A stretch of DNA of 57,706 nucleotides from an uncultured delta proteobacterium (GCA_963848135.1 CAWKCK010000004.1:248001-305706); one strand, 5' to 3'; shown: positions 41,643-56,882, numbered from the stretch's first letter. Translations and numbers: made by a program. The notes: generated by a model from the letters alone, not told the origin.

Positions 41643-42542
41643 TCACATGTTTGCTCTTCTTGATTCCCCAAAATTTTGGGTCCTCTCTATCACCGACTCT
41701 TTCGAATTTTGGGCAATAGCAAGAACATTTTGAGCACCGTGTTTCCATGGTTGTCGGGTAAAATTCAACATGCGTGTTTTGCTGTCGTAAAGTGCGATTT
41801 CATAGCCACGTTCGTAAAGCCAATCAATGATTTCGTGCGTTTGCATCCCGTAACGTTTCGAATAGCCTGCTAACTCAAGCTGCCAAACAGGAGGGTTCGA
41901 TTGAGATAGTAGGCGTTCTGCACCTTTAAGCGCCAAAGGTTCTGCACCTTCGATATCCATCTTTCCCATTGCATAATGGCGTTCTACAATTTGGTCTAAT
42001 ACGACACAAGGCACACTTATTTTGGAAGATTCAAATCGAGAGTCAGAAACTATCCTGCTGCAAGTGTCTTCATTCAAAGCCATAAACTCTATCATTCCAG
42101 GTTCTGAACCTACAGCGGAAGCGTGTACATGAACCCACGATAGCCTGTTTAATGCGATGTTTTCTTTCAACCTTTTTAAAGCTTTAGGATCAGGTTCGAA
42201 AGAGTCAACAGAACCATTGCCACCGACGAGAGAAGCGGCAAGCAGCGTATACACGCCAACGTTTGCACCAATATCGATAAATGCATCCCCTGGCTTTAAG
42301 TAATGTGTTATGAACTGCATCTCGTGGTAATCAGGATATCCGTTAAAGTATAAAACTGCAGAGGCACTGCGGCTATCAGGGTAAATTCTTAATATCATGT
42401 TAAACACGGAGATATCGAGAGGTTGCCGAATCAGGCGTTTATATATCTGCCAATTTGCAGCTTTATATAAAGATTTTAGGCGATTACCTTGGTTAGCAGG
42501 ATGAATCCATAGATCTTTGATCAGGGATGAGTTTGAAGACAT
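41643..42542 (-). CDS. FkbM family methyltransferase
   Basis: DIGANVG, FEP and KMDIEGAE motifs. Confidence 0.9.
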   Translation of the reverse strand: MSSNSSLIKDLWIHPANQGNRLKSLYKAANWQIYKRLIRQPLDISVFNMILRIYPDSRSASAVLYFNGYPDYHEMQFITHYLKPGDAFIDIGANVGVYTLLAASLVGGNGSVDSFEPDPKALKRLKENIALNRLSWVHVHASAVGSEPGMIEFMALNEDTCSRIVSDSRFESSKISVPCVVLDQIVERHYAMGKMDIEGAEPLALKGAERLLSQSNPPVWQLELAGYSKRYGMQTHEIIDWLYERGYEIALYDSKTRMLNFTRQPWKHGAQNVLAIAQNSKESVIERTQNFGESRRANM

Positions 42543-42761
42543 CAGGTTTTCTTTTAATTCAACTTAGAGTATGGGGCATTTTTATTACACGAGAATTGAA
42601 GACTAACATCGAATCTTTTTTATCATGTTTCGTGATTTCTTATTATCTCGCTTTATGCAGCGGGGCAAAGGCAGCTATGAGACCTCAATTACGAGAAATA
42701 CCAGGCGCTCTTATGTTACTTTTGTTGAAACATTCTGTTTGAAACTTTGATCCATTTCTCC

Positions 42762-43895
42762 CTAACTTCGGTAAGTAAAAACGTAATCAGGTTTATTACT
42801 AAAACCGAGAAGCCAGGCGTAGAGTTCAGCCATCATCGATGTTGCCGATTTCCAAGAGTAGCTTTCCGCCATCCATTTGCGCCCTTGAAGACCCATTCTG
42901 TCAAGTTCCTCCTTCGGAAGGCTCAAGGAGTGTCGCAGGGCATTGGTCAGCGCGATCTCGCCAGGTGGTATGCACCATCCGCTCTCACGCTGTTTAAGGT
43001 CCGTCCATGGCGTTTCGGTCGTGGTAATCACAGGCGTGCCGTGGGCCATTGCCTCGGCTATCGCAATACCGAAATTCTCGGAAAAGGTGGGAAGAACGAA
43101 AAGACGTGCACTGGCAAGCATCTTCTGCTTATCTTCTCCCAAAACTTCGCCTCGGAAATTAATGCGCTTCGCACCCAGCTCATCGACAAGTGAAATCATC
43201 TTTCGTCCGTAGTGATCCGTCACTTTCCCCGCAATATGCAATTCCCACTCGGGGAAGGCGCTCTGGATTGCACGCCAGGCCGGTATGAGAATGTGCACAC
43301 CCTTTTTTTCATGTATCCGGCTGAGAAAAACGACTCTGTTCCGTTTATTCCGATTTTTTGAAATATCAGGAATATCGACGCCATTAGGGATAATTGCCAC
43401 CGGCTGCTTGAAATTCAAGCGGCGGATGTCTTCAAGTTCAGAATTTGCTGTCGCATGAAAGCAGTCAACCCGTTGTAAGGCAGGTTTTTGAATCAGACGC
43501 CAGACTGGTCGCTTAATCGCTGATCTGTAATTCCAGGCCCATGGTGAAAACATGCCTCTTGGGCTCCAGACAACTTTAGCTTTCGAATGCTTACTGAGTG
43601 CATGGGGGAAAAGGTTCGAAAAACGCCATACGCCATGGCCGTGCATGATGCAGGGCGTTTTGGCGCGGTGCCGTATTGTTTTTAAAGCATAGAGAGGCGG
43701 GAGTCCCACGCGGCCAAGCAAGCCATTATATATTTCTAGTGATGAGGCATGTTGCCATACTTCCGGTTGGTTGCCTAAGGCCATCACTGTGACAGGATTT
43801 TCCTGATTCGATAGATGGTGCGAAAGGTGACCTACGGAATGCGTTGGCCCCGAAGATGAGCTATCAACGCTTTGCAGTAATTGGTAAATCTTCAT
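42762..43895 (-). CDS. Glycosyltransferase family 4
   Basis: SPRGM, IPNGVD, SRIHEKKG and ENFGIAIAEAM motifs. Confidence 0.92.
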   Translation of the reverse strand: MKIYQLLQSVDSSSSGPTHSVGHLSHHLSNQENPVTVMALGNQPEVWQHASSLEIYNGLLGRVGLPPLYALKTIRHRAKTPCIMHGHGVWRFSNLFPHALSKHSKAKVVWSPRGMFSPWAWNYRSAIKRPVWRLIQKPALQRVDCFHATANSELEDIRRLNFKQPVAIIPNGVDIPDISKNRNKRNRVVFLSRIHEKKGVHILIPAWRAIQSAFPEWELHIAGKVTDHYGRKMISLVDELGAKRINFRGEVLGEDKQKMLASARLFVLPTFSENFGIAIAEAMAHGTPVITTTETPWTDLKQRESGWCIPPGEIALTNALRHSLSLPKEELDRMGLQGRKWMAESYSWKSATSMMAELYAWLLGFSNKPDYVFTYRS

Positions 43896-44155
43896 TATTC
43901 CGCTTTTCGGTGAGAAGCTTTAAGGCCTGACTTTGATTGCGATAGCGCTTTGATAAGTGTACCGGTTACCCAAAATGGGGGTCAGAAACATAGCGCATAA
44001 AAAGGCAGAGGGCATCGTTACGCCAGTGAGCCCAAATTTAAAATTTCAATCGTCAAGAGTACGATCCTGAGCAATGCTACTTTATTCTGCCCATAAGGAT
44101 TCGGCCAGTGAATCCGTCTGCATAAGATCATATTATGCTTCGTTGAAAGGGTCAT

Positions 44156-45301
44156 CTATTGGCCGTTCTCCAGAACGGTTTTAATCACTTGGCTAACCCT
44201 TCGCTGAAAGTTCGATTTTGAGAAAAATGCCAAACCAGGCGGTATCCGCCTATCGGATCGCAACGCACTCTTAATGCCATTTATTATATCCTCTTTGTTC
44301 GAGGGGTCCACAAGTGTGCCAAGCTTGCCATCCCGCAACGCCTCTCTTCCACCGTCGAGTTTGCTGGCAACAACTGGTATTCCACAAGACATGGCCTCCA
44401 GAAATACAATTCCAAAACCCTCGCCTTGACTTGGCATCACATAAACATCCGCTAAACGATAGTGGTCAACCTTTTCATTTTCATCGATCATTCCTGCGAA
44501 GACAACCTGGTCTGAAACGCCAAGGTCATGGGCTTTTTCTGCGAGTCGGGCTCTGTCTGGGCCATCTCCCCCCAAAAGATATATCAAGTTTGGTATTTTC
44601 CTATTCAATAGAGGCAAAACCTCAATAATTTCATCGTAACCCTTTTTGCGGTCCGGCCCAGGCATGCGACCAAGGGACATCAATACACATTTGCCCTGCA
44701 AACCATAACGTTTAACCAGTGTTGGATTCTTGGGTCCTGGCGTGAAGCTTTCTAAATCCACACAAACCGGAAGAATAATTGATTTTCCATGGTTAAAGGC
44801 TGACCAGCCGCAGAAACGGTCAATTGTCGTTTGACTGATTGAAACCACATAATCGACTTTTGAGGCGAAGTAATTCACTATGTGGTTTTTTGTCGGGGTC
44901 CACGCATCGATGCCATAAATTATCATAACCAATTTCATCTGCAGAAGCTTTGACAGCGGCCAGGCAATTGGCAGTAGATTGATATGCCCGCAAATTAAGA
45001 CGTCAAAGCGGGAATCCATGAATAATGATATTAGCAGATTTTTAATGTAATTGGGTATTGTCGTGATACCCTTGTCAATGAATCGAATTTTGTCTGGTAT
45101 TTCCTCTTTGATGGCGTAAGTGACGAGTCGCGGGAATACTAAAGCTTCTTCGCAATTGGTGGCAATGCTCATGGCTTCGAGAAGGTCTCTATTGAATCGA
45201 GAAATGCCTCCATGCCCGCCATAGGCATCTGTTAGTAAAACCAGAATACGCCCTGTGGATTTTTTGTCAGTCAATTTCGGGCCAACAGCAAACGGATTCA
45301 A
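44156..45301 (-). CDS. Glycosyltransferase family 4
   Basis: GGI, KGYD and EGFGIVFLEAM motifs. Confidence 0.92.
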   Translation of the reverse strand: MNPFAVGPKLTDKKSTGRILVLLTDAYGGHGGISRFNRDLLEAMSIATNCEEALVFPRLVTYAIKEEIPDKIRFIDKGITTIPNYIKNLLISLFMDSRFDVLICGHINLLPIAWPLSKLLQMKLVMIIYGIDAWTPTKNHIVNYFASKVDYVVSISQTTIDRFCGWSAFNHGKSIILPVCVDLESFTPGPKNPTLVKRYGLQGKCVLMSLGRMPGPDRKKGYDEIIEVLPLLNRKIPNLIYLLGGDGPDRARLAEKAHDLGVSDQVVFAGMIDENEKVDHYRLADVYVMPSQGEGFGIVFLEAMSCGIPVVASKLDGGREALRDGKLGTLVDPSNKEDIINGIKSALRSDRRIPPGLAFFSKSNFQRRVSQVIKTVLENGQ

Positions 45302-45306
45302 TGATG

Positions 45307-46593
45307 TTATCTAAGATCATTATTCGAGTCACGATGTATCCGCGATTTTTCCTTCATCTGCTGATGCGTAAATTGGAAAAGCTCTTTGAGCCAGTATACC
45401 CAACGCTTAACATACGATAATGGCAACAGCCACGGCTTCTTCGGCGGATAAGCGACGCGAACATAGGCTGGATCAGGGAAAACAAGCTGTAGTAAAAAGG
45501 TGAACTTTTTTGGAACCTTACGAATAGACTCTATATATCCGCGAACGCGAATATTGGATGTATTTCTTCCGATCGCATAGTTTAATTCCAGCATTTCAGC
45601 AGCATCTGTTTTAAAATTTGACAAAAATTTCAAGAAATCGTCAGGTATTTGCACGTTAAACCAAAGTTGTGCTGCTTTCAGTGCATGTTGAACGACCACA
45701 CTCGTTTTCGATTCATCGAATTTACTTTCTAAGTATGGCCATCCGTTCATTTCATTCAACTTTTTCGTCAAATAGGCAATGTCAGCAATCCAAATCAGCC
45801 TTACGTTTTCATTATGGTTTAAAGTCAGATGAACGGCCGAATGGATTAATGCATCGACAGGGTTAAGAGTGTTAAAAGAAATGCCCGTTACTTTCACTGG
45901 TTCTGCTTGATCAAAGACATCAGCTGCCCAGTCATTACGCCCGATGCCATAATAGTCGAGAAGGTTCCAGTGTAGATCCAATGTTAACGGTCTTTGTCGA
46001 CTCTCTTTATGAAAAAAATCCTCCGCTTTACAAATATCTTTGAAATGTTCAAACCTGTTAAATCTGGTACGGTAGCCGAGTTTATACAATAATTTTCGAG
46101 CCAGGAGGAATTTCTGAGGCTTAACCAGGATGTCAATATCGCCAAACGGCCTTGCAGCAAAGTCAGGATAAACGGCCCATGCCAATGCCAATCCTTTTAG
46201 AACAATCACCTCAACATCCGCTTGAGAAAAAGCTTCCAAGACTTCACGTAGTTGTCTCAGGTAAATCTGGTAGGCAAGGTTGTTTTTCAGGAATGTTTCC
46301 TTGAACTTTTTTTTTATATTTACTGACGGCTGGCAAGATACAGGTAATTGCGCTATCTTTGTGTATAAAAGCGGAATCAATCCATGTCTGCTTAGCTCTG
46401 AAATTAAAAAAGCCCATTCATTTTCAGATGTAATGGGGAAGGGAAGGGGGTTATCATCTCTGAGTATAGTTAGAAAGTACGAAAATAAGGGCTTTGATAC
46501 ATCAAGAAGGGGCCGTTGAGAGTCCTCTAAAAGCTTAAAATCTTTGTGGAAAGATTTTATATTTAATATTAAATCGTTGTTCATGAGGTGCAT
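45307..46593 (-). CDS. Nucleotidyltransferase family protein (type found in lasso/RiPP clusters)
   Basis: VLKGLAL...YPD...RPFGDIDILV and DLHW motifs. Confidence 0.85.
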   Translation of the reverse strand: MHLMNNDLILNIKSFHKDFKLLEDSQRPLLDVSKPLFSYFLTILRDDNPLPFPITSENEWAFLISELSRHGLIPLLYTKIAQLPVSCQPSVNIKKKFKETFLKNNLAYQIYLRQLREVLEAFSQADVEVIVLKGLALAWAVYPDFAARPFGDIDILVKPQKFLLARKLLYKLGYRTRFNRFEHFKDICKAEDFFHKESRQRPLTLDLHWNLLDYYGIGRNDWAADVFDQAEPVKVTGISFNTLNPVDALIHSAVHLTLNHNENVRLIWIADIAYLTKKLNEMNGWPYLESKFDESKTSVVVQHALKAAQLWFNVQIPDDFLKFLSNFKTDAAEMLELNYAIGRNTSNIRVRGYIESIRKVPKKFTFLLQLVFPDPAYVRVAYPPKKPWLLPLSYVKRWVYWLKELFQFTHQQMKEKSRIHRDSNNDLR

Positions 46594-46638
46594 AAAAATA
46601 TTTTGTGAATATTTTTCAGTAGGACTGAAAAATCTGTA

Positions 46639-48453
46639 CTATCGATAGTGTTGTGCCTGCTTGTTGAAATAGAAGGCATACTTCCCATCGAGATTCACCA
46701 ATTCCCCATGGCTACCGCCTTCAATGATTCTGCCCTTTTCAAGGACAAAGATACGATCAGCCATCCTTACAGTGGAAAAACGATGGCTGATCAGTACAGC
46801 CGAGCGCCCATTTAACAGTTGCCGGAAATTTTGGAATACGTCATATTCGGCTTTGGCATCCAATGAACTTGTCGGCTCATCCAACACAATCATTTGGGCA
46901 TCTCTTAGGAATGCCCTCGCCAGCGCGATTTTTTGCCATTCTCCTATGCTGAGTTCTTCTCCATCTTCGAACCACTTGCCCAGGGTGGTGTCGTAACCCT
47001 TTGGCAGCTTCTCGATCAGCTCAGCTGCGCCAGCATGTCGTGCCGCACTTTCAATATATTCAGAATTTAAAGGAAGTTTGGTATTCCCAAACCAGATATT
47101 TTCACGGGCGGTCAAATGATATTTGGCGTAGTCTTGGAAAATAGCGCTTATTTCGTTTCGTAAAGACGTTAAGTTGTATTGACGCAGGTCAGTACCATCC
47201 AAAGTTATTATTCCATCGTTGGGGTCATATAGCCGACAGAGAAGTTTTGCTAACGTGGTTTTGCCGGAACCGTTTTCGCCGACCAGAGCGATGACCTCAC
47301 CAGGATGAATGTTTAGGGAGATGTTACTCAAAGCATTTTCGCTACCCATGGGATATTTGAAACTCACATCATCAACAATGAAACCACTAAGAATTGGTCG
47401 AGGGAACTTCGTAGGATGGATCGGAGTTTTGACTTTTGTCTGAAGTTTCAGCAACTCGTCCAAGTTAGTTAAAAACAGATTGTTTTCGTATAATTCGGCC
47501 ATACCACCCAGGGTTCCCTGGAAATAGTTCAATGCTCGTTGAAAAGCCTGAAAATACATGACCATATCACCGATCGTAATCATGCCGTTGAGCGTCCGAT
47601 AAATTATAAACCCCAAGGATCCAAATAGACCGATGATGCTAAAGCTTTCGGCAAAAAGCTCCGCACCCACACGTTTCCGGGAAAGATTTAATTTCTCTAA
47701 TCGCAATTGATTCCGCAAATGCATAAATCGAGGTTTAAACACTGTCCCCAAGTTAAATAGGCGGATTTCTTTGGCATGGGTTTCACCGGTGAGCAGCCAA
47801 TTGTAATAATCGGTTTTACGCTGCATGGAGGTTCGATCACGCTGCCACCCGAAAATTTTTTCAGAATATTTCAGTCGCACGATCAGGCTTGGTACTGCCA
47901 CAATGATCAGGATGAATACGATACCCCAGTGGAATGCCATCAACAAGCCTGTCAAGGCCAATAGTGAGACGGCGTTTTGTCCTAATCGAAGCCAACTATT
48001 TATTATCATCGACGGGCGATATGGACCTTCTTTTTGGGCCCGATGAAGCGTGTCGAAATATTTCGGGTTTTCATAATATTCCAGATCTAATTCTGCCGAT
48101 TTTTCGTGTAGAATACTATACACATGGTCGGTGACCTTCAGCGTTTGAGCCTCACCTACAAATGCGCTGAGATGACGACAAACCGCGTTTAATAAAGCCG
48201 CACCGGCGGCCAGACCAATGAGAACCGGAATGCTGATCGAACTGGCAGCGCTTTCCTGCACACCAAGAGATACCGCCACCGCATCGAGTATCAACTTGAT
48301 GATATATAGGTTCAAAAGAGGGAGTACCCCCAAAAAAACAAGCAGGGCAAGATTTGCGAAAAACAAACCGGGCCCTGCTTGCCACAATAATTTAAAAGCT
48401 TGTTTGAATCGTAGCGCCGTTTTTAGTTTATTCAGTATAGATGGCCCCTCCAT
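46639..48453 (-). CDS. ABC exporter, fused permease/ATPase (RiPP-cluster type)
   Basis: TM domain with KEIRLF, then GENGSGKTT, LSIGEWQKIALARA, LDEPT and SHRFS. Start placed at the TAATG overlap with the rSAM stop. Confidence 0.92.
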   Translation of the reverse strand: MEGPSILNKLKTALRFKQAFKLLWQAGPGLFFANLALLVFLGVLPLLNLYIIKLILDAVAVSLGVQESAASSISIPVLIGLAAGAALLNAVCRHLSAFVGEAQTLKVTDHVYSILHEKSAELDLEYYENPKYFDTLHRAQKEGPYRPSMIINSWLRLGQNAVSLLALTGLLMAFHWGIVFILIIVAVPSLIVRLKYSEKIFGWQRDRTSMQRKTDYYNWLLTGETHAKEIRLFNLGTVFKPRFMHLRNQLRLEKLNLSRKRVGAELFAESFSIIGLFGSLGFIIYRTLNGMITIGDMVMYFQAFQRALNYFQGTLGGMAELYENNLFLTNLDELLKLQTKVKTPIHPTKFPRPILSGFIVDDVSFKYPMGSENALSNISLNIHPGEVIALVGENGSGKTTLAKLLCRLYDPNDGIITLDGTDLRQYNLTSLRNEISAIFQDYAKYHLTARENIWFGNTKLPLNSEYIESAARHAGAAELIEKLPKGYDTTLGKWFEDGEELSIGEWQKIALARAFLRDAQMIVLDEPTSSLDAKAEYDVFQNFRQLLNGRSAVLISHRFSTVRMADRIFVLEKGRIIEGGSHGELVNLDGKYAFYFNKQAQHYR

Positions 48454-49574
48454 TATTTCTTGGAGTCCAGTGTTGCTTTGCGTGCCTTTGCAATTTGACA
48501 GAAGTATTCCACAGGCGCATCGGGTTCGCCTGTTTCCAAGAAAGCATGTGCCGGGCACCAGTAACAGAGGTCGATGAGCTCGCAATTTCCACAATTATCG
48601 ATATAATCGTTTCGTTTTGCACGTAATTTGCGAATTTTGGGGATAAAGTGATTCCATGCTTCCTGTGAGGCTCCCGCGTCTAAGATCAAATATGTAGAGA
48701 GCTGATTGTGAAAGCTCGAGCATATCCGAAAACTGCCATCAGAGCCCACTGAAAAATTTTTATCTCCGGCATTGCATTGAAAGAGCAGATTTCCGCAGTC
48801 CTTAACACCTTTCCGCATTTTGGCCGTATCGCATTTTTTCCTGAGTGACGCCCATCTCTGCGGGTCCGTCTGCTCCAGTGCGATGATTTCATCCGCAGTG
48901 AGTCTCTCGGACTCAATTTGCTTGTTCTTCACAGAATCCCGATCATACCGAAAATGCAGAAACGGGTCAAAGCGGTAAAAATCTTTCGTGAGTTTCCTGC
49001 AAAATATATCGATTTCTTTCAATTCCGCAAGGTTTGAACGCAGAGCCATAGCTTTCAGGCGAACTTTGATGTCACTTTGTAACAATTTACCCAAGCCATT
49101 TTGGAAGCTGTGGAAAAGGCTTGGCCGGCGTGTAACTCGCCCGTACGTTTTTTCGGTAACGCCATACACAGTCACTTCGATGTCCCTTGGCGGATATTTT
49201 TTAAACAATTTTATGTGGTTGTCCGATATCAAAGTCGCATTTGTAAATACGGATACCAGCAAACCTGCTTTTTTCAATGCGATGTAAATTTCCTCGAAAT
49301 CCTCTCGCAGCAGAGGCTCGCCGCCCGAGATCAAACACCACAGTGAACCTAAAGATACGGCTTCCTGGGCTAATTCGCTTATTTCGTCCAGAGTCAATTC
49401 ATTGTTCCGTGCTTCAACATCGTTTTCCGGAAGATTGATATAGCAGTGCCGGCAGTTATTGTTGCACCGGGCGGTTATTTCGATATCAAATGAAAAGGGA
49501 ATCCGGCGGTTACTGGTTTTATCCCACAAACCAAAATCAGATAATTCGCGATGTGATACAAAAGAATCTTTCAT
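48453..49574 (-). CDS. Radical SAM/SPASM maturase 2
   Basis: CNNNCRHC, SGGEPL and FTNA; SPASM region CNAG...C...CGNCELIDLCYWCPA...C. Confidence 0.92.
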   Translation of the reverse strand: MKDSFVSHRELSDFGLWDKTSNRRIPFSFDIEITARCNNNCRHCYINLPENDVEARNNELTLDEISELAQEAVSLGSLWCLISGGEPLLREDFEEIYIALKKAGLLVSVFTNATLISDNHIKLFKKYPPRDIEVTVYGVTEKTYGRVTRRPSLFHSFQNGLGKLLQSDIKVRLKAMALRSNLAELKEIDIFCRKLTKDFYRFDPFLHFRYDRDSVKNKQIESERLTADEIIALEQTDPQRWASLRKKCDTAKMRKGVKDCGNLLFQCNAGDKNFSVGSDGSFRICSSFHNQLSTYLILDAGASQEAWNHFIPKIRKLRAKRNDYIDNCGNCELIDLCYWCPAHAFLETGEPDAPVEYFCQIAKARKATLDSKK

Positions 49575-49683
49575 AGTTGTTTATATTGCTGTAAAATTAT
49601 GAGATTCTCCACCAATTTGTAGACCCTTAGATTATGGTCTACGAATTATCCGTGTTGTTTGCGGCCAAAATTTGTTTCTTGTA

Positions 49684-50156
49684 TTAGTGCTCCAAATATT
49701 GAAATAGTTTGACCAAAGGAAGGAACAAATTGTGACGCGTTAGAAATGAAATGAAGACCCTCTCGAAGCCCAAGCCGAAACGATTATTTTTCCCGTATCG
49801 CTCGACATTGCTCGTGATACCTAAAACTTGATTTGCGGCTACATTGTCTATGGCAGTTTTTACGTTATCTGCTTTGATGGAATAAAAGTTTCCATTCGCT
49901 ATAATTATGCGATGAACTAAAAGCCTCTTCGTCGTCGGATGCACATAAGCAACGACTTCGCCAACTTTGGGTTTTCTGTCTTTCAGAGAAGAAATCGTCA
50001 GGATATCGCCATCCTTGATCAAAGGCGACATACTGCGCCCTGCTGCACGAAATCGAAAAGGTTTACCTTTTTCAAGAACGGCACTCAGCAGTGTGACCAA
50101 AGCATTATTGGAAAGACAAATCCCACTGGAATTTCAATGATTGAAACCGGTCTCAT
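49684..50156 (-). CDS. S24/S26-family peptidase (putative leader peptidase)
   Basis: GRSMSP (Ser) and LVHRII (His) motifs. Probable ATG at 50156 overlapping the RRE stop, with a frameshift near 50130; the intact frame runs from 50100. Confidence 0.8.
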
Positions 50157-50464
50157 TAGCTGTCAATTTCAACAACGATTCCCCGTTTCGAAAGTTCCCG
50201 GACGAATCCGAGGACATCGATTTCAATATTCTCTTTGGAATTTTCGTACTCGGCTGATATATCTGCAATGATATCTTTAAGGCTTTTGTTGCCATCAAGC
50301 TTGTCCCATATAGCTTCACCGGTGGCGTTCAATGTAAATAGCTCATCTTCCATGTCGCCTATGCCTGAGACAAGCGGTACAATAATAATTTCACCCTCTA
50401 TCTTGCGGGCAACGACATCCTCGGAAACTTTGTACACTTTTTCAAGGCCAGAATTGATTTCCAA
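50156..50464 (-). CDS. PqqD family / RiPP recognition element
   Basis: VVARKIEGE, LFTLNATGEAIW..LDG and DV..FV.EL..RGIV. Confidence 0.92.
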   Translation of the reverse strand: MEINSGLEKVYKVSEDVVARKIEGEIIIVPLVSGIGDMEDELFTLNATGEAIWDKLDGNKSLKDIIADISAEYENSKENIEIDVLGFVRELSKRGIVVEIDS

Positions 50465-50710
50465 GTTAATCCTCCCTGGATATACCTGATATGAATTCCG
50501 AAACGGCGCATTTGAATTTATACAAATGATATATTCCCAAGTGTTTGTAACGATTCTGCAATTCGGTAAAATATTGAAACAGGAAATTGGGGGGGGGAAT
50601 TACTTTATCGTTAAGGGATGGTCCGGCCTTCGGGATGGTCAATTTCGATCAACTCTAAATTGGTGGGCACTAATCGGGTTCATTCAAGTTGGTAATCATA
50701 AAGGGGCAAG

Positions 50711-50745
50711 GGGAAAAACCTCTACCAACAATTTAGGGTAGAGGG
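50711..50745 (-). terminator. Intrinsic terminator/stabilising hairpin after the precursor gene
   Basis: Minus strand CCTCTACC-10 nt-GGTAGAGG followed by TTTTT. Confidence 0.65.
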
Positions 50746-50779
50746 CGGTGGGCTGTGTTTTATCGATACCCCAGAGGTT

Positions 50780-50962
50780 TCAACTCGTTACAAATGCCGA
50801 ACAAGGCTGTGGATCCGGAGGCTCTGAAAAATAGCCGCAACCTGTTAACCACCCTGTCGGTCCGCTTGCATCACCAAATAGCTTGCAGAAGAACAATACA
50901 CTTTCTTCCGGTTTACCGCGGATTAATACGATTAATTTTGGTTTTTCCCATTCTTTTTTCAT
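50780..50962 (-). CDS. RiPP precursor peptide, 60 aa
   Basis: AGGAG RBS 7 nt upstream. MKKEWEKPKLIVLIRGKPEESVLFFCKLFGDASGPTGWLTGCGYFSEPPDPQPCSAFVTS has a WxxPxL RRE-binding-type motif and lies between the rSAM and RRE genes. Confidence 0.85.
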   Translation of the reverse strand: MKKEWEKPKLIVLIRGKPEESVLFFCKLFGDASGPTGWLTGCGYFSEPPDPQPCSAFVTS

Positions 50963-51117
50963 TATCATACTCCTATAGTTTCAAGATCTAAAAGATGTGT
51001 TACTTAGCGGCCATTTAAATTACTCGATAAGCAAATATCGTATTCGCTAACGATCTGTCAGTGGATTATTAGCGGCGAATTTCTTGACCCTGTCATCTCC
51101 ATTATCAATCTCCCAGG

Positions 51118-52342
51118 CTAAATGTTTTGATGCACAGATATTGCATCCTCTGATGATCTAATATTAGCAGCCTGTTGCTTGACTCTGTCATTACCATCAT
51201 CAACCTCCCAGGCGTTTTCATCATTTCCGATTAGCCCGAGATATATAGCTTTGGCATGCGCAGCTTTGCACAAGTACTCTATTGGTGTATCCAAGGTGCC
51301 GTTTTCTATCCATGATTTTCCGGGGCATTGTTCACAGAGTCCTTTTAGGAAACAACGTGCACACTTCGCCAGGTATTCAGGGTTGACGGCATCACGGGCT
51401 CGAATATCACGCGCAAAATCGACAACGGCCTCCCGCAGGTTCCCGGTACTCACATTATAGACGGTTTCAGGGTGTCGGAGCAACAAGCAAAGCTGAAAAC
51501 GGCCATATGCGTCAACCGAACCGTTTTGCACGCCGGCACCGCAAGTGAAGAGGCGGTTTCCACCAGTCTTCATGAATTTTGAGCAAAACTGGTTCATAGC
51601 TCTTGAAAATTCGGCTTGATTCCTGGTTAAGAACGTTAATGTATCTTCAGGTGCCAAACGCAATTGTTTAATTTGTGAATTCTTTGTTTCTGAATCTCGT
51701 CGACATCTTAGATTGAGTGAAAGTGTATATGATGGCTTTTGAATTTCCTCGGGTAAAGAAGAAACCCAACTTTCAAATGCATCAATTTCTTGGATTGAAG
51801 ACGGTAATAAAACATTTTTTATTCCAAAAGGGACCTTATAATCCAGCAAGAGTCGGATTCCGAGATAGGCAGCCTCGTATGAGCCCGGCGCCCGGCTAAC
51901 CGCCTCATAAGTGCCTTTTTGTAAACCATAATTAGAGATTTCAATTTTTTCCAGCGGTGGTAATTTGGCAAAAAGAGCGGCCAGACGGGGTGTGATCAAT
52001 GTGGCGTTCGTGGACAGAATTACCTTTATGCCGCACCTTCTAGTGTGGACGTAAATTTCCTCAAAGTCTTCTCTTAGCAGAGGCTCGCCTCCCGTAAATT
52101 TGACAGTTAAACATCCTAAGGCCGCCGCCTCATCAATAATTTTTTTTAATTCATGAGTCCCCAGTTCCCCCTTTTTATATATCTTCATCATCTGCCGGTT
52201 GGTTGATATAACAATGGATGCAATCATTGTTACAGCGTTCCGTCAGTTCAATGTCGAGTTTTGTTAAAAGAGGTTTACGGGTTTTCCATAATCCAGACTG
52301 GCCTGCTTTTATTTTTTCGAAATATGAATTGATTCTTTTCAT
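51118..52342 (-). CDS. Radical SAM/SPASM maturase 1 (frameshift near 52180)
   Basis: N-terminal frame MKRINSYFEK...DIELTERCNNDCIHCYIN, then TGGEPL, STNA and CGAG...C...CARCFLKGLCEQCPG...C. Confidence 0.9.
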
Positions 52343-52448
52343 TCAATTTTTATTCTTAAAAAGCCAGATATTTTCCCCGGGCAGAGAAGACTGTTTGTGA
52401 AAAGTCTGTGTGCGCCTGTAGCCTATATATGGTTTTAATATTATGAAA

Positions 52449-53337
52449 TTATTGATTTAAAAGTAAACTTTTAAATTGTTTGATTATTTTACCGCTTTTG
52501 TCAAAACTCATTTCATAGCAGGGGACCTCCTGCGCCGTTTGTTCAATAAGGCTTATCATCGATTCCCACCAGGAAGCCGTCACAAATGGCTTTATCAAGC
52601 ACGATAACAGGTTTTTGAAAATTTCTTTTTTATCTTCGATTCGGGTGATTCGATTCTCTACAGCCTTGTTTAGAAATAAGATATGTTTCAACCCGGTCGA
52701 TTCGGTGACACGTCAGTCACATCACCATGACTCCAAGTTCCATGAATCTTTAGCCCTTCTTTCCAACTGCGGACGATAACCCGATCATCGGAAAGAATTA
52801 TTGCCTCGTTTTTTATCATTTTGGCGATTGTCGATTTTCCAGCCGTCGAATGGCCCACAAATAACAGTCCTTGATTGTCAATAATAGCGCCGCATGAATG
52901 CAGATAACAACCATGCCTTGGGGCTAATGTTTGGGCAATTAAGAGCTGATCTGTCGGGAAAAGAGTTAGGGCGCCTAAATTACCTCTTTGGAAAGCGTCT
53001 TCACTCGGGTTGTATATCTCGGCTTGGCTGTAATCGTGGTTGAAAATCGCTACGCGATGATAATCGTTGTTTTCTCCATTGGTTGAATCCCGAGATAAAT
53101 CCATGAATCGCTGTTTCGGTAAATCGCCCAGGGCGGTTTGCAGTAGACTCGCTGGCCCAATTCCCATTTGCCGACATCCGGTAAGCAGAAATGATGGCGG
53201 ATGGTAATCGTATCATCTCCGGGGCCCTCCACTTCAAAGAGTTTGAATTTAGGTTGGAATGTCGTGTCTTGTATTGGGAGGTCGGATATTACCTGAAAGG
53301 TAATCCCACCGCACTGATAGTAACGACAGCGGCTCAT
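52449..53337 (-). CDS. HPr-kinase-like P-loop protein (two frameshifts, ~53085 and ~52690)
   Basis: Three consecutive ORF fragments join into YLHSCG...GHSTAGKST...LSDDR...GTW.HG...ILFL...VPCY. Confidence 0.8.
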
Positions 53338-56264: not shown

Positions 56265-56882
56265 TTAAAATTTCTCATCCCTTGATTCCCACCTACCCCT
56301 GAAGCTTATCCAGAATGAAAGCGCAATCAGGTGTATATCCAGGCAAAGAGAGTGCTTGTTAATATAAAGAAGATCGTATTTAAATTTCCGACGAGGTGAG
56401 GAATTTTTAGGTATGTAAACTGTAGCCAAACCGGTCAGGCCTGGGCGAGCCTTCAGTCGATCCCAAAATCCTCTTATTTCCTCATAGTTCACACGATTAC
56501 CTTTTTTATCGGTTAAGATTTCGCCCACAGCGAGCGATCTGGGGCCGACAAAACTCATGTCACCGACCAGGATATTTAGCACCTCGGCAATTCGTCCAAT
56601 CCCATGGTTCTCAGTAATCGGCCTACTTTCGTAATGCGAGCGTCTTTTTCCTAACTTTAACAATGCCATATTTTTTTTCGGCATCAGGCACCATGGTTCT
56701 AAATTTGTAAACACCAAAACGCTTCCCGTTCCTGCCCCACCGCTTTTGACGGAAAACGGCCCGCCGTCTTCGAGTTTTATTGCCATTGAAATTGGTAAAA
56801 CCACCGGCAAAGACATCCCCAACATCAACATAGATAAGGCTATGTCCAGGATGCGTTTAAGGGTAGGCTCCTGGTAATTCAT
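56265..56882 (-). CDS. Sugar transferase (priming/undecaprenyl-phosphate glycosyltransferase family), internal frameshifts
   Basis: KRILDI, GDMSFVGPR, RPGLTGLA and YDLLYI motifs. Confidence 0.85.
   Translation of the reverse strand: MNYQEPTLKRILDIALSMLMLGMSLPVVLPISMAIKLEDGGPFSVKSGGAGTGSVLVFTNLEPWCLMPKKNMALLKLGKRRSHYESRPITENHGIGRIAEVLNILVGDMSFVGPRSLAVGEILTDKKGNRVNYEEIRGFWDRLKARPGLTGLATVYIPKNSSPRRKFKYDLLYINKHSLCLDIHLIALSFWISFRGRWESRDEKF

Follow-up and report, generated by a model that had tools for sequence, protein, structure and literature searches.

A probable member of a widespread peptide-maturation family that joins two radical SAM enzymes to a kinase and signal-peptidase-like kit, at a contig end of an uncultured delta proteobacterium

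What does a peptide gene cluster make which carries an accessory set reminiscent of phosphorylated lasso peptides, twin radical S-adenosylmethionine (SAM) enzymes and no lasso cyclase? The question is raised by a stretch of DNA of 57,706 nucleotides from an uncultured delta proteobacterium (GCA_963848135.1 CAWKCK010000004.1:248001-305706), which as a whole is called the window in the following. Between positions 45307 and 53337 every long reading frame lies on the minus strand. Calls of open reading frames (ORFs) and scans with Pfam and NCBIfam models resolve a run of eight genes there, and the coordinates confirm the order given in an initial annotation made from the bare sequence: an HprK-like kinase, a radical SAM/SPASM enzyme (rSAM1), a precursor peptide, a PqqD-type recognition element, a leader peptidase, a second radical SAM/SPASM enzyme (rSAM2), an ATP-binding cassette (ABC) exporter and a nucleotidyltransferase. 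The locus had been taken for a cluster of the type that makes peptides of ribosomal origin bearing post-translational modifications (RiPPs), devoid of a lasso cyclase. This is borne out, as the cyclase family Asn_synthase (PF00733) has no match anywhere on contig C4, which carries the window. Nor does the cluster contain a lasso B2 protease; the match to PF13471 (Transglut_core3) nearest to the window is located at C4:20392-20715, 228 kb off.

The SynChlorMet (Scm) cassette of TIGRFAMs/NCBIfam consists of ScmC (HprK-like), ScmD (PqqD) and ScmE and ScmF (both radical SAM/SPASM). To our knowledge its product is uncharacterised. We consider it probable that the locus in the window belongs to a large, horizontally mobile and uncharacterised RiPP family, a sister lineage of SynChlorMet, in which two paralogous radical SAM/SPASM enzymes are combined with the kit of the linear polyphosphorylated peptides (LPPs), i.e., LppA/K/B/S/D/N of Paenibacillus alginolyticus (Popov et al., Nat Commun 2026, PMC13381572). 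The product would most likely be a small, cross-linked, Cys-bearing peptide which is phosphorylated at its last Ser, trimmed and exported.

A gene-neighbourhood survey of radical SAM homologues, the check which the initial annotation had named, bears the cluster out. Among species-representative genomes rSAM2 has 226 relatives. The best 80 of these 226 stem from Omnitrophota, Thermodesulfobacteriota, Chloroflexota, Planctomycetota, Bacillota, Aminicenantes, NC10 and the archaea Methanothrix and Methanoregulaceae. Together with one locus from a genome of the same order (L095) they form a survey of 81 loci, in which ORFs were scored with profiles from first-round matches; those that extend 6 kb or more upstream and 3 kb or more downstream of rSAM2, 35 in number, are termed well flanked. 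As core set we define an HprK-like domain (free or fused to a third radical SAM enzyme), rSAM1, PqqD, the signal-peptidase-like protease and rSAM2. All five core genes are present in 55 of the 81 loci and in 30 of the 35 well-flanked ones. Individually, rSAM1 is found in 67/81 and 32/35 loci, PqqD in 74/81 and 35/35, the peptidase in 72/81 and 34/35, and the HprK-like domain in 61/81 and 31/35. Homologous clusters should share a conserved precursor if the annotation was right; one is present in 60 loci (32 of the well-flanked) and accompanies the complete core set in 49 (28). The family is thus widespread in bacteria and methanogenic archaea, neither rare nor unique to this genome.

Within the lineage of its host the family is patchy. 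A relative of rSAM2 occurs in 0/19 other genomes of the same family and in 5/21 genomes from other families of the order. The G+C content of the cluster region (0.42-0.44) deviates from that of the window's housekeeping part (0.50-0.56). Patchy occurrence, wide phylum range and deviating base composition together argue for transfer, and the family is probably horizontally mobile. Two layouts exist. In 44 of the 81 loci the complete HprK-like protein is part of a fusion roughly 650 residues long, occupying its C-terminal half, with a third radical SAM/SPASM enzyme as the N-terminal half (radical SAM residues 1-350, HprK about 352-651; e.g., L037:2223-4241 and L028:4030-5985). The cluster described here has the rarer layout, in which the kinase is free and there are two radical SAM enzymes (18/81 loci).

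The precursor is the second element of the argument. Two small ORFs lie between rSAM1 and PqqD, and only the one of 62 codons has relatives, namely 78 similar peptides in the surveyed loci (phmmer). The second, of 58 codons, was rejected as an additional precursor because it has no phmmer match in the 81 loci and no family match. A profile built from 35 peptides matches the 62-codon ORF alone in the whole genome. Against 1.84 billion representative proteins, clustered at 50% identity, the family comprises 3448 cluster representatives if the limit is set at E<=0.001, and 1066 if it is set at E<=1e-10. A second precursor search gave 433 matches; among the 120 listed none has a Pfam domain or a functional name, all but one being unnamed or termed 'hypothetical protein' and one carrying an evidently wrong ribosomal-protein label. 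Model scans found no Pfam or NCBIfam model for the precursor family.

Residue counts refer to 80 peptides with the core-start motif VLxxC[KRA], taken from a set of 84 which includes the window's own. The precursor follows the pattern WxxPxLIVLxRGxPEExVLxxCK. The Trp of WxxPxL is present in 76/80 and the Lys after the first Cys in 76/80; the terminal residue is Ser (68) or Thr (8) in 76/80, and in 52 of the 80 there is a distance of exactly six residues between the last Cys and the end. The same traits stand out still more clearly in the 150 best representatives from the database, which were drawn without reference to gene context and are independent of the locus survey: 149 have the Trp, 147 end in Ser or Thr, and 137 have a C-x5-[ST] end. 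The core is hypervariable: conservation is limited there to the cysteines, the Lys that follows the first of them and a single Gly, and no conserved Ser exists at its start. The window precursor has WxxPxL, VLxxCK, three Cys and a C-x5-Ser C-terminus. As a separate observation, the best database match to the precursor profile, P0001 (180 residues), contains two precursor-like units in a single reading frame.

When the number of cysteines is set against the number of enzymes a pattern emerges. Where the kinase is free and two radical SAM enzymes are present, three Cys are found in 16 of 19 peptides; where the radical SAM-kinase fusion brings the enzymes to three, at least four Cys are found in 43 of 48. 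Two of the three exceptions in the free-kinase group, L051 and L032, may in fact be fusions, because the kinase there is cut by a contig end or fragmented. The added Cys stands 2 or 3 residues before the last Cys in 108 of 118 four-Cys peptides. Radical SAM enzyme count thus appears to track precursor Cys count, as a pattern and not as a statistic. Taken together, the survey yields testable rules: a WxxP leader, one radical SAM enzyme per additional Cys, and a C-x5-Ser/Thr end.

The genes and reading frames are compiled in Table 1. In rSAM2 the CX3CX2C motif (C37/C41/C44) and seven SPASM cysteines (C267, C285, C328, C331, C337, C340, C359) are invariant in 74 aligned sequences. The motif starts at about residue 37 in both radical SAM enzymes, so that no room is left ahead of it for a fused RiPP recognition element (RRE). 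The discrete PqqD-type RRE has the lasso RRE TbiB1 (5v1u) as nearest solved structure (E 1.2e-6) and matches weakly 9x90_B and 9x8z_B, 2026 entries named PqqD-family chaperones. A predicted complex of PqqD and precursor, both entered as alignments, scored 0.45 compared with 0.33 for a control, a result which we use neither way. The kinase motifs GHSxAGKST (P-loop), DDR and WSHG are invariant in the family and all present in the window; the NCBIfam scores of the kinase, 27.9 bits for HprK_rel_B and 19.2 bits for ScmC, are both below cut-off. In 58 peptidase sequences G21, S23, M24, P26, D32, H63 and R64 are invariant and D78 is 98% conserved. The peptidase matches PF00717 and PF10502, and its top NCBIfam model, the archaeal-type signal peptidase I, reaches 39 bits vs a cut-off of 51.85. 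The DxD motif of NTP_transf_5 (D152, D154) is invariant in 17 sequences.

Table 1. Reading frames of the cluster and its immediate border, with positions counted from the first letter of the window
Feature	Position	Strand	Remarks
HprK-like P-loop kinase gene	52449-53337	-	three frames: 53050-53337, 52688-53167, 52449-52691; Hpr_kinase_C E 7e-4
rSAM1, radical SAM/SPASM enzyme	51118-52342	-	two frames; PF04055
Precursor peptide, 62 codons	50780-50968	-	second ATG at 50962 gives 60 codons; precursor profile E 2.8e-19
58-codon ORF, spurious	50466-50642	-	without homologue or family match
Discrete PqqD-type RRE	50156-50464	-	PF05402, 61.3 bits
Soluble signal-peptidase-I-like (S24/S26) leader peptidase	49684-50156	-	first canonical start TTG 50100; homology to 50145; PF00717 E 3e-7
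rSAM2, radical SAM/SPASM enzyme, intact	48453-49574	-	PF04055
MsbA-like ABC exporter, permease and ATPase	46639-48453	-	NCBIfam MsbA 268 bits (below cut-off); PF00005
NTP_transf_5 nucleotidyltransferase-like protein	45307-46593	-	PF14907, E 4.9e-54
GT4 glycosyltransferase, possible cluster member	44156-45301	-	PF00534, E 1e-36; 5 nt after NTP_transf_5

Does this particular copy work? The initial annotation missed that two of the genes are not in a single frame: in blastx comparisons with intact homologues rSAM1 runs through two frames and the HprK-like gene through three. In rSAM1 the CX3CX2C motif is located in a 55-codon ORF (52175-52342) and the remainder in a second one (51118-52227). The frame switches between 52187 and 52176, within an A5G5 run, as judged against three intact homologues, to which the identity is 55-56% over residues 4-388 of 404. 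Four intact homologues of the HprK-like gene are covered nearly end to end, but the alignment passes from frame to frame near 53083-53071 and again near 52706. A third gene is doubtful. The initial annotation had also reported TAATG coupling at two junctions. The TAATG in which the rSAM2 stop and the exporter start overlap is confirmed; at the second one, at the end of PqqD, the ATG opens a 23-codon frame which is not that of the peptidase. The N-terminus of the peptidase is the shortest among 58 family members, and homology in its frame reaches 50145, upstream of the first canonical start (TTG 50100) and past a TGA. Because the homology passes this TGA and the TAATG frame is a different one, the 5' end of the peptidase gene likely carries a further indel, or else translation begins at a non-canonical codon.

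Contig C4 ends where the window does, and the breaks concentrate in the last 6.7 kb of this contig. Three genes follow between the cluster and the contig end (53381-57706), for a geranylgeranyl-reductase-like flavin adenine dinucleotide protein, an IS3-family transposase (rve + HTH_21) and a priming sugar transferase (Bac_transf); in a three-frame translation inspected by eye, each of them appears to shift repeatedly from one frame to another. The housekeeping genes at 7-29 kb of the window are whole, and frames of 150 codons or more without a stop make up 82% of the genome; hence the breaks are local. They are not confined to the window, though, since AMP-binding, resistance-nodulation-division (RND) pump and Asn synthase genes elsewhere also match in pieces: multi-fragment genes account for about 1/22 AMP-binding loci, 2/11 RND pump loci and 1/3 Asn synthase genes (one AMP-binding gene, two RND pumps and one Asn synthase gene at C3:715557-716581, C18:732092-735913, C17:455581-458611 and C17:217673-218711, in pieces or with internal stops). 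Profile searches found no second copy of kinase or precursor in the genome. Among public sequencing runs just two metagenome DNA runs came up, which contain 5-7% of the sampled words, and no RNA run with such words; the contigs of the two DNA runs cover only 50700-51364 and 52809-52842 and no frame-break site.

That this copy is a decaying, non-functional remnant, gained by transfer and now being lost beside an insertion sequence (IS) element, is therefore a serious contender, to which we give slightly less than even weight. The three breaks that are certain (one in rSAM1, two in the kinase gene), the likely fourth at the peptidase start, the repeated shifts in the three genes toward the contig end, the local nature of the breaks within an otherwise well-framed genome, the multi-fragment genes elsewhere, the adjoining IS element and the lack of a compensating second copy of kinase and precursor all speak in its favour. 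On the other hand, all defects of the cluster are one-base frame changes at short homopolymers (A5G5, A4, G3), and the aligned segments have neither in-frame stops nor deletions. The broken rSAM1 is as similar to its homologues as the intact rSAM2 (55-56% and 53-57% identity), and the kinase retains all catalytic motifs. A pile-up of breaks at a contig end also fits poor polishing, and similar fragmentation is seen in two other loci from contigs of metagenome-assembled genomes of long-read style (L032, L065). Recent inactivation and a poorly polished contig end would both account for the breaks, and we favour neither.

For the family, of which the window holds a possibly silent member, the following pathway can be proposed. 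The RRE would bind the WxxPxL leader of the 62-residue precursor and present it to all enzymes. Within the hypervariable core, rSAM1 and rSAM2 would each introduce a single Cys-based cross-link, which is most likely a thioether. The C-terminal Ser/Thr, a nearly invariant residue, would receive a phosphate on its side chain from the kinase, possibly more than one, comparable to the action of PadeK and PsmK on lasso peptides. NTP_transf_5, perhaps with the adjacent GT4 glycosyltransferase, would add a sugar to the phosphate in the manner of PsmN, a DxD protein which is required for hexose addition to phosphate and is inactive as D134A/D136A mutant (PMC6993621). The peptidase would remove the leader in an RRE-dependent manner like LppS, and the ABC pump would export the product. 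The cut may fall after the conserved PEE. We propose this site, with low confidence, because the distance from PEE to the aromatic residue of the WxxP motif equals that of FET in LppA.

Several points weigh against this reading. The thioethers and the sites of phosphorylation and cleavage are inferences, no chemistry having been observed. The radical SAM enzymes are remote from characterised maturases, with 77 bits for StsB (cut-off 625), 41.7 for PapB (cut-off 340) and an E-value of 5e-8 for SkfB. The Cys and enzyme counts come from related, non-independent loci. NTP_transf_5 and the ABC exporter occur in 32 and 24 of the 81 loci, respectively, and in only about half of the well-flanked ones (19/35 and 16/35). 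LppN was inactive in the heterologous host (PMC13381572). An LPP-type kit does not dictate a C-terminal phosphosite, because the LPP kinase acts on Ser3 of the core (PMC13381572). Finally, two, perhaps three, genes of the window are out of frame, so this copy may make nothing.

The chemistry of the radical SAM enzymes could be of another kind. They might form C-C cross-links, epimerise residues or modify the invariant Lys, with the cysteines serving in disulfides or metal binding. We regard this as rather unlikely. It draws on the Lys after the first Cys, which is as conserved as the Cys itself (76/80), and on the NCBIfam matches of the two enzymes, the best of which include AhbD/NirJ-type enzymes, which are not peptide maturases, while no known maturase model is reached. 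On the other side, conservation in the core limited to cysteines, this Lys and one Gly suits acceptor-independent thioether chemistry, and the number of radical SAM paralogues rises with that of the cysteines. Further, the nearest solved structure to rSAM2 is the thioether-forming SkfB and the best maturase-type model for rSAM1 the sactipeptide maturase StsB, both enzymes being remote from every solved structure.

A similar doubt concerns the kinase. The HprK-like protein may not be a C-terminal Ser/Thr kinase, but may act on an internal Ser as in LPPs, or may be an ATP-dependent partner or scaffold of the radical SAM enzymes; we hold this for improbable to the same degree. LppK targets Ser3 of the core (PMC13381572), the fusion of the whole HprK-like protein to a third radical SAM enzyme in 44/81 loci suggests a physical role alongside these enzymes, and the ScmC model describes the HprK-like protein merely as a cassette protein. 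However, near the core start there is no conserved Ser/Thr, whereas the last residue is Ser or Thr in 147/150 representatives, and neither the P-loop nor the DD metal site varies within the kinase family. It is exactly such a terminal Ser whose side chain PadeK and PsmK phosphorylate; both need the DD pair, and PsmK D158A/D159A is inactive (PMC6993621).

If the proposed pathway is carried to its end, one arrives at a distinct RiPP class, a tentative extension that we deem possible but not likely. Each radical SAM paralogue would make one cross-link, and a (poly)phosphate or phosphoglycosyl group would be placed on the C-terminal Ser/Thr at the fixed C-x5-S/T distance from the last cross-linked Cys. 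The fusion of the third radical SAM enzyme to the kinase would then mean that cross-linking and phosphorylation are mechanistically coupled, and the subtype of the window, in which GT4 and NTP_transf_5 are neighbours within a polysaccharide locus, may join the phosphorylated end to a sugar.

The surroundings deserve a brief description. Polysaccharide genes flank the cluster on both sides, i.e., an FkbM-type methyltransferase, two GT4 glycosyltransferases and Bac_transf (window 41643-45301 and 56265-56882), a setting also reported for the LPP and paeninodin clusters of Bacilli. A homologue of the adjacent GT4 is found in 5 of the 81 loci, 4 of the 5 belonging to the stand-alone-kinase subtype; in L023, L042 and L043, which look closely related, it is positioned directly upstream of NTP_transf_5. 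On this weak evidence the GT4 gene may belong to the cluster in the stand-alone-kinase subtype. A general tie between the family and polysaccharide genes was rejected, as the homologue occurs in only 5/81 loci. On the same contig, 228 kb upstream of the window, a weak HprK-like match (E 6e-4) is located beside a Transglut_core3 match (E 1e-19) at C4:19497-20715, which may represent a separate kinase/protease peptide locus. A further observation concerns the peptidase: at L018:2534-3598 a GNAT acetyltransferase domain (PF00583, E 2e-10) follows the signal-peptidase-like part at the C-terminal end of the protein, and peptidase ORFs of 280-400 residues in about 10 other loci may be the same fusion. 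If so, one might suspect that the conserved Lys, or the N-terminus exposed by leader removal, becomes acetylated.

What is new in all this? The architecture is known from Scm and the kit from LPPs; the product is uncharacterised. In the literature searched, which is of limited coverage, we found no description of the precursor family, the C-x5-S/T end, the radical SAM-kinase fusion or the link between radical SAM enzymes and Cys number. Searches there for RiPP combinations of radical SAM enzymes with HPr kinase, PqqD or signal peptidase returned nothing relevant, and such blanks do not prove absence from print. In the family two lines of work meet, the one on the kit of kinase, signal peptidase and RRE, for which function was first demonstrated in 2026, and the one on radical SAM peptide cross-linking, a connection not encountered in the literature searched. 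An intact cluster is available in a cultured organism, Desulfobotulus alkaliphilus ASO4-4 (L021). The value for the present genome alone is lower because its copy may be inactive.

How, then, does the locus compare with the systems already known? Like SynChlorMet, it unites in one operon PqqD, an HprK-like P-loop protein and a pair of radical SAM/SPASM paralogues. The likeness to this cassette seen in the initial annotation thus stands for the architecture and fails for membership, since every Scm cut-off is missed: ScmE 82.7/400, ScmF 59.6/400, ScmD 34.1/100 and ScmC 19.2/125. Around L108, a cassette which passes all four cut-offs, our own profiles identify genes for an S24-like peptidase and an ABC exporter as well as an NTP_transf_5-like gene. 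Because L108 shares these flanking genes and the window nevertheless misses every cut-off, Scm and the window family are best seen as two lineages of one architecture, and the window is by its scores not a member of Scm as curated. The precursors differ, and many members of the window family add a third radical SAM enzyme fused to the kinase. The term 'SynChlorMet' was not found in the literature searched, which excludes most subscription journals. As an observation on its own, a 69-codon ORF next to an above-cut-off ScmC (L107:9730-9939) has a YxxPxL leader motif and repeated Cys in another pattern; it is a candidate Scm precursor with no NCBIfam match at E<=1e-5. The L107 cassette is partial: radical SAM genes are missing, and its neighbours are genes of ribosomal proteins and a masked stretch.

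That the locus is simply a SynChlorMet cassette or a member of the LPP family is highly improbable: its architecture equals that of L108 and its accessory genes those of LPPs, yet all four Scm models score far below cut-off (ScmC 38/125 even for the intact kinase homologue of L023), this genome has no ScmC match at E<=1e-20 vs an above-cut-off ScmC in 12/301 sampled genomes of the phylum (L108 being one of these cassettes), and the LPP precursor motif is absent here, while LPPs have no radical SAM enzyme ('radical' occurs 0 times in the main text of PMC13381572, and 'Radical_SAM' once in its supplement, as a column header of a co-occurrence table).

With the sactipeptide and ranthipeptide pathways (SkfB, StsB, PapB) the window family shares radical SAM/SPASM enzymes and Cys-containing precursors with hypervariable acceptor positions, on which the enzymes would act here as they do there. 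The window enzymes score far under the cut-offs of those families. There the RRE is fused, here it is discrete; there one enzyme makes all links, here apparently one enzyme serves each added Cys. Moreover, kinase, nucleotidyltransferase and signal peptidase form a kit which those comparison systems lack.

The agreement with LPPs extends to most of the accessory genes (PMC13381572). A signal-peptidase-I-like leader protease with Ser, His and Asp is common to both: LppS is SipW-like with S29, H68 and D93 essential, and here S23, H63 and D32 are invariant in a gene whose 5' end is uncertain. An S26-like protease in place of the lasso B2 enzyme, as initially annotated, is thus present and no B2 protease is, but the replacement itself is not new, LppS being a characterised precedent. 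Both systems have a discrete PqqD-fold RRE (LppB is required for leader cleavage), an HprK-like kinase with P-loop and DD (LppK transfers several phosphates onto core Ser3; the window gene is split over three frames), and an NTP transferase as well as an MsbA-like exporter, LppN being an uncharacterised NTP transferase. A polysaccharide-locus setting, often within capsule loci for LPPs, and a [Y/W]xxP leader motif are likewise shared. The differences lie in the peptides and the radical SAM enzymes. The LPP precursor reads YxxPxVLxHQxIxFETxxS with Ser3 as phosphosite, the window family WxxPxLIVLxRGxPEExVLxxCK with at least three conserved Cys and a C-x5-S/T end. The LPP product is linear and its cluster, as described, is without radical SAM enzymes; the window cassette keeps two radical SAM/SPASM genes. 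LPP clusters are described as restricted to Bacillota, and the window family is spread over many phyla.

The accessory set was initially compared with that of phosphorylated lasso peptides, which is correct for the lasso-type RRE, the kinase and NTP_transf_5, and too narrow in that the same set with a signal-peptidase protease is the core of the LPP clusters (PMC13381572). With paeninodin and pseudomycoidin the family shares the WxxP leader, a C-terminal Ser, an HprK-like kinase with DD and a DxD nucleotidyltransferase (PMC6993621), and the lasso-type RRE. The Trp in WxxP is typical of paeninodin-like lasso precursors, where LPPs use Tyr (PMC13381572), and the peptides of the window family have this Trp (76/80) and the terminal Ser/Thr (76/80), the latter as putative target of the kinase. 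Paeninodin and pseudomycoidin clusters possess a lasso cyclase and a B2 protease, and the window cluster is without both; presumably the radical SAM enzymes form the cross-links instead. That they replaced the cyclase, as initially annotated, is a possible view of how the cluster evolved. From the comparisons with LPPs and pseudomycoidin one can therefore describe the window family as the protease and kit of the LPPs combined with the Trp leader and terminal Ser of the paeninodin type, without the cyclase.

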